Under the pieces are notes generated by a model. That model was not told the DNA's origin and did no database searches. It worked only from the letters and a program-made list of their open reading frames with translations. Below, one piece after another: positions 28,801 through 34,800 of a stretch of DNA of 64,000 bases. Both the position numbers and the translations under genes were made by a program. Numbering within the stretch: position 1 is the stretch's first letter; each line of letters opens with the position of its first letter. Origin of the DNA: Bugula neritina (taxonomy: Eukaryota > Animalia > Bryozoa); NCBI GenBank assembly GCA_964035545.1, contig OZ037767.1, positions 21,034,628 through 21,098,627 on the forward strand. The letters are read 5' to 3'.

Positions 28801-31800
28801 AATCAAGTCAGTGAAGCACTTCAGACCATACCTATATGGCAGGAAGTTCCGGCTGCGTACGGATCATGCCTCGCTGATCTGGTTGTGCAGGAGAGCAGAG
28901 CCCTCTAGTCAGGTCGCCCGGTGGCTCGAAATCCTAGCTGAATTCTCATACCGGATCGAACATCGACCGGGCAAGAGACACAGCAATGCGGATGGGTTGA
29001 GTCGTCGACCTGACGGAGGTTGCAAACAGTGTCTCAACATCGAGAGGAGGGATGGAGGTCCCCCAGGATGCGAGTTGGAGACGCTGGCTCATCACGGAGC
29101 ACCGTTTGACTGGGATCAAGGTCAACTCAGGCAAAGAGTTGATGAGTCCCCGGAGGATGTACAAAACCTCCGCGCCAACCCTGTACTGGCCGGTAATGTT
29201 CGAGAGCTGAAGAAGCTCCAAGAAGAGCTGCCTGGAGTCGTGGCAGACATATACCGGGCCAAAAGGGAAGGGCGACGACCCAGCGAGGAACGCATACGAC
29301 AGGGATGCGCCGAGTTCCGGCTATACTGTCAGCGTTGGGACTCGCTGCGGATCGGGCAGGATGGGTTACTAACCATCTCTCTAGCTGCCAGCGGCAGACA
29401 CCCGGAAAGGAAGAGGGTGGTCTGCCCCACAGCCATCCGCCGTGAGTTGATTTGGGATACTCACAAGCAGGCCCACGCAGGGGTCAAGCGAGTGATGTCC
29501 AAATTACGACTTCGGTGGTATTGGCCACAAATGGAGCGTGATGTCCGGCTCAGAGTCAAACAGTGTGAGATCTGCCAGGCCAGTAAGCATAGCCGCCCCC
29601 CTGGTGAAGCAGGACGGCGGAGGCTATACGCTGGTAGGCCCTGGCAAGTAGTCGCTGTAGACCTGGTCGGACCCATGCCCCTGACCCCCAGAGGCAATAA
29701 TTGGATCCTAGTACTAACCGACCACTTTACTAGGTGGGCGGATGCTCTGGCTATCCCAGATGCATCAGCCCAACAGTGGCCAGGGCGCTAGACCAACATG
29801 TATTCTGTTATTTTGGGCTCCCCGAACAGATACACTCTGATCAAGGCGCTCAATTCCAGTCTCAACTGATGAGCGACCTTTGCCGCCTCTGGGGAGTAAA
29901 TCAGAGCAGGACCACCCCCTACCACCCTCAAGGTAACGGGGTGGTGGAGCGCAACAACCGGATGCTAGGTGATGCACTCCGGAGTCTCCTCCTTGGACGA
30001 GGTCAAGAGGAATGGGATACGGTGTTGCCGCAAGTCATGCGTGCATACCGTAGCACCCCACACACCAGTACTGGTGAGACCCCAAACCTCTTGATGCTCG
30101 GGAGAGAGACTCGTGTCCCCGACCATCTCACCTATCACATTCCAGAGCAAGATAACTCAGTCCACGAGTATGCCAGTGAACTAGTGGAACGGATGAAGGC
30201 CGCACGCGATATACTGCGCCAACAGCAGTGGAAGGTGCAGCACGAAGATTCCGATGAACCACCCCTCTATCAGAGGGGAGATAAGGTGTGGATGGTCAAT
30301 TACCGTAGGCGCCGCGGACAGGCTGATAAGCTGAAGCCTAAGTTCGTAGGCCCCTACGTGGTTGTCGAGGCTATGCCCAATCATACGTACAAGATTGAGC
30401 GCTCAGGACAGGTGTCTATCCAGAATGAGTCTCGCTTGAAACCGTATTGGGCTAGCCCAATGCAGAGTGGGAGAAGCCCCCCCGTTGTTAGAGCCCAGGA
30501 GGCAGACAACAACGCGCGGGCGACGGCGGCATGGACCTGAATACGAAGTGGTCATACCGCGGGAGGAAAACTTGGTGAGAGAGGAGCGGCAGCTTTTGTC
30601 AACAGAAGCGTGTCCGCCACCGCCAAGTCTAATTCCATCACTTCCAGAAACCGAGCCGGTTCCGGAAGTGCAAACCCCCACGGAGGGAGGGGCTCCATCC
30701 GGAGAACAAGAAGAGGTGACTGCTGACGGTGAAGTAGAGACGCCATTAGAGGCCCCTACTAACGAACCGGCAAGCGTGTCACCCCCCCTAGAAAGGGGAC
30801 AGCGTACGAGGCAACCCCCCGCATACTTGAAGGACTTCGTATGTGACTGCGTTAAAAGCGGCACGCATGAAAGTCTAGGGGAAAACCGTACGAGAAAAGA
30901 ATCGAGCAAATGTGGGAGTTGTCAACACCACGGAAATATCAACTTTTGCATCGGCGGAAATAGAAATAAAATTCATCCGCCGGGTGTACAAAGTCTTAAT
31001 CACGCACCCCAACCACGTTGCTCGATCTTTTCATACGCTGATGCAGTCAGGAGTAGACGTGTCTCTAAGCAGTAGTTCAAACCATTTCACACATTCAGTA
31101 TGTCTTACGACAACAGATCGTGGGGTGAGTTAACTATATCTTAATACGAAACTAGATTGCATCGCTCAGCTCTGACTCACTGAGTCAATCGAGCTGGAGA
31201 TAGGTTAGTGAAATACCGTAGTAAGAACTCAGTTTGACTTAGAGATTTTTATAATCTCATTGCAATACGTGTTCTATCTGACTATTCACTACCATAAATC
31301 TCTACGAGGTAACTGAATTAGGAGTTGCCAAGCTGTTCAAGCTGACAACACAGCAGTGTACTATATTAACACTGTTGAAACTTTTTCAGATTACACTCGA
31401 CCCGCTACAACCAGGGTACGGGATAGAACACTTCCCGCTCCGTATCCGGAGGAGTATGCTAGTGGTGACAGGCCTGAGCCACTACGCCGCCGTTGGCGGT
31501 GGGTGTCTCCACAAACAGAAGAAGAAATAGAAACAGCCTGGGGGTCCAGAGGACGGACGAGATGCCAGATCTGTGGTGAAGATTGTGCCTCTCACCGCTC
31601 CCTTAAACTACACGTCAATGCTCATCTCCTACTAACATTCTGCCCCTGCGGGTACAATGATGTGTATCCCTACCCCGTCACCAGACACCGAGCGGCGGGC
31701 TGTTTCCCTGGAGAAAACTACGTGGTCGACGCTAAGCTATACCCGGAGTTCCTCACACTTATACGACCTCTGGTGAAGAAGGCCATGTTGTTAGCCGTTC

Positions 31801-34800
31801 TGTCCTCGGGGTTCCAACGTGTGTTAGACAACGCCCGCCAACAATCCCCGTTGGTGTCTGACCGTCCTCAAATTACATACACCCCCGAGGAAATTACATA
31901 CCCAGAAGAAGGAGAGATCTCCCCTACACCGGCGAAGAGACGAACCAGGTCCCCCAGTCCACCCTTGCGCCGCAGACGGACACCGTCCCCAGACCCAGTC
32001 CGCCTAGCCACAGTAGAAGAACGCCTCCTGCGATTACAAGAAGAATTCACCCAGCTGGCACCAGATCTACTTAATACTACCACAGGACTCTTCCAGCTAA
32101 AGGGATCCGTATGCCGTATGAAACGGAAACTGCGTACATGCCAAGCCAAGCACCGACGTGCCCAACAATGACTCTGGTTCTGCTGCCGGAATAATCTGCA
32201 ATTCCATCCTCTTGGGGGAACCCAGGACCTCGTGCAAATGCTTAACTGCTGGACAGGTTATTCCTTGCCTAATACCACAGCTAGCTAGTATTCCTCGTCT
32301 ATCTGCAGCTGGCCAATTGTATGCAACGGATCGTTACGATGACTCTGTATTATTATTATGTCTCTTCCTGTATATTATGTGTTATTTTTGTCCACTGATG
32401 TATGTAGTTATTAATGAATGTTTTTTTTTATATATATCAGAAAGATGGCTTTCTGCTGGTGGGGGCGGTGTGGTGGTTCGTGGAACTACCAGCAGCACAA
32501 CATGTAGGGTCGCGTAATTGACCCGGAACAATGGATAGCCAATTAGCGTAGTTGATAGTTAGCAGCAATTGTAGTTTCCCGCTGCTAACTCAGTCGAAGC
32601 TAGAGTGTGAAATAGATTGGATGTGTAACTTGTTTGGAAATAATGTATCGTTTTTATAATGTATAGTTGTGTGTAAAATATACTCGTTCACTCGACTTAT
32701 CCTGGTGCAGTTCTATAGGAAATAAATAGACTCTCTGGATAGCACATCAACCCTAAAACTGAAAATCTTAACAATATGTGACATCTGACATGTAGTACAT
32801 AATATACAAGGCTTGACATGTGTCACACCTAACATGTGACGTCTAGTATGTAACATTATTCATACATTTATATTTATTAGTTCTTTGAAAATCAGAAAAA
32901 AATATTATCTGAATCTTATTTACATGCAGGCACTGTATGTAGCATTATGTTTACATGAACTTATGTTTAATATCCAAGTTGCTAGTTTTATTTTATTCTT
33001 ATTGTTGGTATATTTTGCGGTTATTGTTGATGTTTCAGGTCCTCCAGGAACTGGAAAGACTTACGTTGGTTTGAAGATAGTCGAGACCTTGCTGTACAAT
33101 TTGTACCACGTACCTTGCCAAGAGGAGCCTAAAGGTGGTAAGTATAGGCTGACTCACTCTAGTATCTGCCACTCTAGTTCTATGATGATGAGCTATTCAT
33201 GTCACATCACACTCCCTGTACTGTTCAGTACCCGATTGCTATCAGCTCTGCCTTTTGTTACTTGAAGAGTTTGTGAATACATTTTGGACAACTGCAAAGC
33301 TTGTGGATATTTTCAGCCAATAGAAAACACTCTGGTGGAAGCGTGTTGGAGAAGATAGCCTGTTGCCCGCCAAGGTCCTTGAACCAGCTGTTAGTTGTAT
33401 GTTACACTAACCACGCTCTCGACCAGTTTCTAGAAGGCATGCTCAGCTTCTGTCCCATTGAAGGTGTGTTCCATACATCATTTTGTTCTTCTTTAAAAAA
33501 GTTATAAATTTTGCATAGTATATAAATTTCAACATTGCGATGTGAGTTCAAGGTCAAAGGTCTCACTTCTTGTATTGTGAATTTATCTAAACAGACATGA
33601 TCAGAGTTGGAAGCCGAAGTAAAAACAAGGCCTTAGAACCTTGTAATATCAAAAACCAGAGAGCCAAGTCTAGTGTTCTGAGACGTGCTTTTGCAGATGC
33701 CTATAGTCAGAGGGAAGTGTACTTGGTAAGTCCACCAAGTGCACAGTTAAAGTGTGCTGTATTCAATATGCAAGAGTAGAGGTAACAGCATGTACTAATT
33801 ACACATAGTATTGTTTTATTATTACACTTAAAAGTTTAGAAGGGTATTTTTCTCACCTATTCTCACCTATCTCCGCTTTGTCCTGGTAGCCGGTATGAAA
33901 AGTATTATTGATGGTCATTGATATTGCTAATATAGTATAGAATAAACATATTTGTGTTCACACAATGTACTCCACAACCATACTAACATTTAACAATATA
34001 TGACATAACTAAAGGTTTTAGGAAAATATCCTTTTGCTCTATGTAATAGTTACTGCAGCTTTATTGTATTTTCGATATTAACTGTTTTAATTAATTTATA
34101 TCAACGGTTTGTTTTAGAATAAAATGAGCTATGAGAAGGTTAAAGGTCAAATAGAGAACTGCCAACTCAGAATACTGAATCACAACACTGGAGGTTTCTT
34201 CCTCAACTTTGAGCAGTTCCACCAACACCTTGAAGCACTTGCAGACAAACTTGAGAGGCAAGGACAATCCAGAGAAAACGCCATGAGTGTCTTTCTTGAG
34301 TCTGGTATGAGACTGAAGCAATCCATTTTGTTTTTAAGCTACAAATTCTAACTAAGCTGTGCCTATCTTGTACAGAACTAAATGTGTCAGCACGGATGCT
34401 GAGTGGCACAGATGCCTATGTGTTGTGATAGCACGGATACTGAATGCTGAATGCACAGATGCAGGACACAACTCAACCTTTTGCTTAATGCCAACAGTTT
34501 ACATTTCTCACAAAACTTTAACAATTATTTGGGCAATACAGTCTAAGTTGTCTGTATCTTTTAACAAAAGGAAAACTCTAACCGAAAATGATCACAGCCA
34601 ACTTTCCTCTTTCATTTCTTAAGCTGTACTGACTCATCAAACAAAAGCTATCAGTAAAAAGCTATTGCTAAAGCTTTCACAAAAAAGCTTTCATCAAACA
34701 ATATTTTACTTAAAGCTAGAACAAAAAGCTCCTGTAACACTAAATACATATATACCAAAGAGACTACTATATAGTTAAACATTCCTATTGTCATACCATG

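Follow-up and report, generated by a model that had tools for sequence, protein, structure and literature searches.

What does an apparently env-less Gypsy element keep between pol and its 3' long terminal repeat (LTR), the place normally taken by env in errantiviruses and retroviruses? The element lies in a 64,000-nucleotide stretch of the bryozoan Bugula neritina (contig OZ037767.1, positions 21,034,628 to 21,098,627 of the forward strand; hereafter the window, in whose numbering all positions are given). A sequence-only reading of the window had described an intact frame of about 260 codons between the pol stop (31075) and the 3' LTR, and had proposed that this open reading frame 3 (ORF3) encodes a spliced zinc-finger and coiled-coil protein unrelated to env. 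The frame is indeed there: it is open from 31317 to 32171 (284 codons from stop to stop, 259 counted from 31392), and none of 1000 shuffles of the stretch from the pol stop to the LTR attains 259 codons. ORF3 is a real, conserved, non-env third gene of this Gypsy lineage. Its parts are as follows.

31390..32171, + strand: coding exon of ORF3 (259 codons counted from 31392; no in-frame Met before residue 132)
31464..31850, + strand: predicted compact double-zinc domain, residues 25-153 (structure model and alignment)
31935..31991, + strand: basic Arg/Ser/Pro tract, closest subfamily only
32004..32165, + strand: long C-terminal helix, predicted coiled coil with a conserved basic patch at its end (model and alignment)

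A double-zinc family in one integrase clade

The C2H2 finger and the second Cys/His cluster noticed earlier belong to one predicted domain, and their ligands are nearly fixed. Finger 1 (C58/C61/H74/H78) is of the C2H2 type with the spacing C-x2-C-x12-H-x3-H, and finger 2 (C84/C86/H99/C104) is a non-canonical C2HC finger of the form C-x-C...H...C; W37 and the pair V112-D113 are the remaining landmarks. Residues 25-153 were modelled from 87 sequences as a single domain (predicted local distance difference test, pLDDT, 95.7; predicted template modelling score, pTM, 0.87), in which extra helices wrap both fingers. In the full-length model the N-terminus and the linker are disordered, and the protein ends in a helix of 54 residues, in agreement with the heptad region and predicted to form a coiled coil. 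A homodimer prediction (score 0.09, mark 0.32) was counted neither way.

A word search among 1405 candidates returned 72 homologues with 44-98% identity, and at the 50% level an exhaustive search yielded 106 representatives, 51 of them at E 1e-10 or better. By a rough pattern test, domain and coiled coil are both present in 29 of the 72, and the other 43 are partial or degenerate, which is what copies of a repeat would be expected to show. In the wide alignment of 71 rows, seven ligands (C58, C61, H74, H78, C84, C86 and H99) are kept in 68-71 of 70-71 rows, W37, V112 and D113 hardly vary, and C104 is present in 47 of 68; the ligands are retained down to about 25% identity. N89 was considered as a lost zinc ligand and rejected, its column being His in just 34 of 87 rows. 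The basic Arg/Ser/Pro tract is present as described, but not family-wide: it occurs in the three closest of 65 scored homologues and is, on this alignment, a subfamily insertion. The basic patch ending the coiled coil is general, with at least six K/R in 20 residues in 53 of 55.

Similarity to known proteins is confined to the fingers. Pfam gives only weak C2H2 matches, in 9 of 87 members; finger 1 by itself is under the Pfam cut-off, and its profile matches solved C2H2 fingers at E 2e-6. Residues 24-82 superpose weakly on DNA-bound tandem fingers (best Z 3.7, rmsd 3.0 over 57 residues). In the sequence of finger 1 and in how the two fingers are spaced, ORF3 is like the tandem C2H2 factors Kaiso, SALL4 and ZBTB, from which it differs in the form of finger 2, in the wrapping helices and in that the whole domain gives nothing above Z 3.7. 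The structure search suggested earlier, run with Foldseek on full-length and domain models, gave no match at E 0.001 in the PDB or among viral structures. With VIA-align, 0 of 48,161 chains reach Z 5 for the domain, which does not imply a new fold; an Atlas search with the domain found clusters at 0.95-0.96 that carry no family name. In the literature searched, which did not extend to Repbase, Dfam, subscription papers or supplements, we found no published account of a double-zinc ORF3 family. The protein belongs to an undescribed family, in a general layout already known from CERV, discussed below.

Could ORF3 be a degenerate env or a small fusogen of the sORF2/FAST type? Its position behind pol, the terminal coiled coil and two furin-like R-x-K/R-R patterns, at residues 193 and 242, would fit, and these patterns correct the statement that it has no furin site. 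The other half of that statement holds: ORF3 is without signal peptide or transmembrane segment (best 19-residue hydropathy 1.51). There is thus no sufficiently long hydrophobic segment, the zinc fingers are of an intracellular type, and Pfam and fold searches with the element and ORF3 matched no env family and no viral fold. ORF3 lacks the features given for sORF2/FAST-like proteins (63-107 aa, a transmembrane segment and a myristoylation motif; PMC11952523). An env or fusogen origin is largely refuted and seems very improbable.

In order to place the module among related elements, we used the best 79 of 386 integrase relatives as context loci, searching all frames of at least 50 codons; scans of metagenome and viral contigs with ORF3, and of viral contigs with the integrase, had given no locus. 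Three of the 79 carry the module, L001 and L002 at E ~1e-26 and L005 at E 9e-12; it was not found in the remaining 76. In a quick integrase tree of 72 rows, which excluded seven short loci (L006 among them), the window element and L001-L005 form one clade (SH-aLRT 99). All three clade loci with at least 1200 nt past the integrase match carry the module, while L003, L004 and L006 stop too early past the integrase to be scored. Outside the clade it was found in 0 of 38 loci with at least 1200 nt and 0 of 23 with at least 1800 nt after the match, a count that decayed copies could escape. By these sequence comparisons, the module marks one integrase clade of Gypsy elements, and it is conserved, with invariant ligands, across integrase lineages just 55-59% identical. 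Unrelated long frames past other integrase matches were also seen (L012:3147-4487, L013:5446-6993 and L017:7420-8436), the last resembling a Tc1-type transposase by eye.

The module takes two forms within the clade. In L001 and L002 the entire architecture, coiled coil included, terminates an unbroken Pol ORF of 1744 and 1760 codons, respectively, and the fused Pol-module cluster counts 19 members. In the window it is a separate ORF, and in L005 a separate, decayed one. In P0081 the module shares its frame with a pol-tail motif (E 8e-7). A search of long proteins found only one fused cluster, and a close-profile search for long fused forms found none. P0072 seemed to run into a stretch like a polypurine tract (PPT), but this was recognised by eye only (E 0.19) and was dropped.

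Candidate splice sites that would join ORF3 to an upstream start

As claimed earlier, ORF3 has no early ATG. Its first in-frame Met (residue 132, counted from 31392) falls downstream of both fingers, so that in the window copy the conserved part needs an upstream exon or a non-AUG start. Two features between the pol stop and the coding exon bear on this.

31100..31124, + strand: candidate mini-exon with ATG 31100 and the second-best donor, phase 1
31125..31389, + strand: candidate 265-nt intron, AT-rich relative to the coding parts, with a branch-point-like motif and a short pyrimidine tract before the AG

Both phase-1 donors and the 265-nt intron lie where the sequence-only reading had put them. 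Ranked with a crude human-type matrix, which also gave the acceptor rank below, the gag donor (25656, after codon 14 plus one base) is the top of 396 GT sites in the element, and the mini-exon donor (after 31124) is second. The mini-exon ATG lies 24 nt past the pol stop and shares its frame with the pol tail. The gag donor is our preference, as it scores highest and provides a start codon in phase; the mini-exon remains an alternative.

Related sequences point to the same acceptor. Of the 20 close homologues listed for their long N-termini, P0051 proved to be a mis-hit of the pattern and was removed; 18 of the remaining 19 show the signature [FL][SL][DG] at the protein level, the residues expected from T(C/T)AG followed by an exon starting with G or A. 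In the exception, P0023, a 14-residue leader replaces the signature. L001 and L002 have TTGCAG|AT in the same phase in front of the Pol-fused module, and two distant sequences (one a Bugula gene model, the other a Logan protein) swap the genomic N-terminus at the matching Gly. On the strength of these sequence patterns, 31390 is probably a used splice acceptor.

Possible roles of the ORF3 protein

Homologues outside the element are relevant to function. Species names are attached to 4 of the 30 homologue clusters looked up, two being uncharacterised gene models of Watersipora subatra and two of Bugula neritina. P0125 and P0186 have a common extra N-terminal domain across two genera, suggesting that they are true host genes; P0187 and P0197 carry a near-identical 63-residue acidic leader on two different domain exons, pointing to a family of host genes or to alternative last exons. 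Some host-like gene models place the module behind acidic leaders, and in this they appear to resemble transcription factors. These sequences suggest that exchange between the element and bryozoan host genes took place, in either direction. A match to a characterised retroelement ORF or a recently transduced host gene had been named as evidence against an accessory gene; what we found are host-like bryozoan homologues of about 30% identity, too distant for a recent transduction. In distant homologues (P0078/P0185, P0114 and P0128/P0186), including Watersipora and Bugula gene models, the double-zinc domain is duplicated in tandem.

The closest known parallel is CERV, encoded by Cer1 of C. elegans, a spliced, nuclear Cys-finger protein in the env slot that shares the gag leader (PMC10309623). 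CERV, known only from Caenorhabditis, has 517 aa and combines a C4 finger with a ring-forming M domain and a G-protein-like domain (PMC10309623). A non-env use of the env slot, the core of the earlier proposal, is supported by the fingers and the lack of a membrane segment, but it has a precedent in CERV (PMC10309623). Both systems have a non-env ORF in this slot, a last exon in the polyprotein frame (here in L001 and L002), and a protein of nuclear type that combines a Cys finger with a leucine zipper and a basic signal; a spliced mRNA that starts as gag does, as in CERV, would be a further parallel (PMC10309623). They differ in that ORF3 has about 270 aa with C2H2 and C2HC fingers, and, compared by description, matches neither the H, M and G domains nor the C4 finger of CERV (PMC10309623).

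Other elements share position rather than protein. Bdelloid LTR retrotransposons also carry an additional ORF past pol, reported to be usually spliced, and gained or lost by lineage; these ORF3s encode a GDSL esterase, DEDDy exonuclease, coiled-coil or transmembrane proteins, mostly enzymes, and the available text reports no zinc-finger ORF3 (PMC5408684). Chromoviruses place a chromatin-type module after integrase, as L001 and L002 do, but it is another domain, whereas here the module is for the most part an independent ORF that has an acceptor to itself (PMC12440569); no chromodomain was matched in the pol tail or ORF3. Errantiviruses are likewise invertebrate Gypsy elements with a third ORF, which encodes F-type or gB-type glycoproteins; the bryozoan ones have the order gag-env-pol, and zinc, C2H2 and splicing go unmentioned in the text available (PMC13524379).

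One further feature of the element enters the functional argument.

25366..25399, no strand: perfect 10-bp inverted repeat with a 14-nt spacer, in the LTR upstream of a TATA-like stretch; speculatively, a candidate site for a dimeric binder

Since the protein is soluble, with two fingers, a basic face, acidic/proline-rich disorder and a basic-tipped coiled coil, an action on nucleic acid in the nucleus is the simplest expectation. We tentatively favour a spliced nuclear double-zinc-finger protein that would bind its own LTR and sustain transcription, because the finger pair resembles DNA-binding pairs, the host-like homologues resemble transcription factors and the LTR holds a palindrome whose 10-bp length was reached by 2 of 300 dinucleotide shuffles. 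A subgenomic spliced RNA would join the first 14 gag codons to the exon at 31390; being short and spliced, it could leave by the normal export route and be translated early. The protein may enter the nucleus via its basic patches, form dimers, and bind DNA through the conserved basic face of finger 1 (its helix has K/R at +2 in 67 of 87 rows and at +5 in 73 of them) together with the helix of finger 2, which among the 87 rows frequently has R-D at +1/+2 and K/R at +6. Speculatively, the protein might target the LTR palindrome and either activate the element or lift its silencing. Less probable is a wider form of the proposal, in which this clade of marine-invertebrate elements would encode a sequence-specific transcription factor that switches between Pol-fused and spliced forms, is traded with bryozoan host genes and closes a positive feedback loop.

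Several observations weigh against LTR activation or the splicing it would use. The acceptor at 31390 is of the claimed phase 1, but hardly "strong", ranking only 11 of 563 AG sites. No predicted junction is among the 15 of 110 joints listed, where the reads of both runs are contigs and absence is not demonstrable; the single RNA run covers ORF3 thinly (31538-31756), also as contigs. Splicing into 31390 is thus backed by the homologue signature and the L001/L002 sites but not by a listed junction, and the signature itself derives from the protein of related sequences, not their DNA. The likeness of P0023 to a spliced gag-leader form is not significant (317 of 5000 shuffles) and was rejected. 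Of 37 homologues, 25 carry a Met of their own ahead of the domain, making a gag leader unnecessary there, and in both L003 and L005 the ATG after the best acceptor runs into a stop. At +6, finger 1 has a hydrophobic residue in 71 of 87 rows, and its helix is conserved, in contrast to the variable helices of base-reading fingers. The partial LTRs of L001 and L005 have no comparably prominent palindrome. Finally, CERV, the sole characterised analogue, is an RNA-export factor dispensable for transcription (PMC10309623).

The export and integrase-tethering alternatives follow close behind LTR activation. A CERV- or Rev-like exporter, whose spliced product would bind unspliced element RNA, oligomerise by the coiled coil and export it, switching the element from spliced to full-length RNA, is possible though rather doubtful. 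It draws on the CERV layout (env slot, start common with gag, polyprotein-frame last exon, TTTCAG/TTGCAG acceptors) and on the Cys finger, leucine zipper and basic signal also present in CERV (PMC10309623); moreover, with its best donor inside gag the full-length RNA needs shielding from splicing, and the conserved basic face of finger 1 is compatible with backbone or RNA binding. Yet finger type and size are unlike CERV as described, the only two NES-like patterns are loose and lie within the folded domain, the Arg-rich tract is not conserved, and no strongly folded response element was found near the intron (z -1.9 and -1.8). It is unlikely, in our estimate, that the module instead targets integration, steering integrase to chromatin in the manner of a chromodomain, as a Pol tail or in trans, with the coiled coil docked on the intasome. 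The in-frame fusions behind integrase in L001, L002 and their 19-member cluster, the pol-tail motif of P0081 and the pol frame of the window mini-exon are what this predicts; however, the ORF is separate in the window and L005, the fused copies retain an acceptor-like site before the module, fused clusters are as scarce as reported above, and Cer1 demonstrates that an in-frame 3' ORF can still act as a separate spliced protein.

More improbable is that a host zinc-finger exon was captured together with its acceptor, to serve as a decoy or dominant negative that counters a repressor of this family in the host, or to have no role for the element. All species-named clusters (4 of 30) are bryozoan gene models, and the common domain of P0125/P0186 and leader exon of P0187/P0197 speak for such an origin. 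Neutral cargo, however, would not be kept with invariant ligands across integrase lineages as diverged as these, and the host-like models could themselves be copies of the element or its domesticated descendants.

As a self-encoded regulator, ORF3 would be a second, unrelated solution in the slot and splicing layout of CERV, and would show convergence. Self-encoded regulators are a hallmark of complex retroviruses, and foamy virus Tas/Bel1, a spliced 3' accessory transactivator of its own promoter, is one example among the transactivators of vertebrate retroviruses; ORF3 would resemble it only if it activates its LTR, no link in sequence or fold having been found. In the literature searched, CERV is the only characterised self-encoded regulator among animal LTR retrotransposons. 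A transcription factor would bring feedback like that of complex retroviruses to an env-less retrotransposon, as a source or target of host regulators. The ORF3 product would be a small, well-folded, testable protein, the Pol-fused relatives offer a test of how accessory genes originate at the C-terminus of pol, and the host-like homologues one of whether zinc-finger regulators move between elements and hosts.

The element and its host gene

The pol order protease, reverse transcriptase, RNase H, integrase (PR-RT-RH-IN) is the Gypsy order and, with the LTRs, target-site duplication (TSD), primer-binding site (PBS) and PPT, places the element in Ty3/Gypsy.

25278-32773, + strand: whole Gypsy LTR retrotransposon (LTRs, TSD, PBS, PPT, pol order)
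25278..25582, + strand: 5' LTR, 305 nt, TG...CA, preceded by TSD ATAT (25274-25277)
25584..25601, + strand: primer-binding site, same in L001 and L005
25614..26567, + strand: gag with a weak CCHC knuckle (ORF and domain search)
26411..31075, + strand: pol, PR-RT-RH-IN, with a Tf2-type SH3, broken into three frames
32458..32468, + strand: polypurine tract, adjoining the 3' LTR
32469..32773, + strand: 3' LTR, 305 nt, TG...CA, followed by TSD ATAT

The primer-binding site is presumably of the tRNA-Leu type. L001, unlike the window element, has a leader of about 580 nt (L001:266-850) between PBS and gag, which holds its best-scoring donor (539) and adjacent acceptor-like sites. Pol in the window copy lies in the frames 26411-29791, 29734-30540 and 30440-31075, and its tail contains AATAAA at 30965-30970, 130 nt upstream of the mini-exon and the element's sole copy outside the LTRs. 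That ORF3 is intact while pol is broken is accurate as an observation, but it carries little weight: both LTRs are identical and the 4-bp ATAT duplication flanks them, the former indicating a young insertion, and by our own arithmetic on length, ORF3, being much the shorter, would escape both of two breaks about 7 times in 10.

The insertion lies in sense orientation within a phase-1 intron of a ZNFX1-like helicase gene (window 22455-48097, + strand), between an upstream exon that ends at 25112 and a downstream exon that starts at 33039; exon 36977-37189 matches ZNFX1 at E 6e-20. The host donor at 25112 has the phase of the ORF3 acceptor, so that a chimeric splice would be in frame and would truncate the helicase before Walker A. 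ZNFX1 acts in RNA defence. Elsewhere in the window, exon-sized frames at 5400-6280 (+ strand) contain motifs that we take to be cytochrome P450-like, and many minisatellite arrays with units of 12-45 nt occupy 37108-39534, 51181-59217 and 62538-63177.

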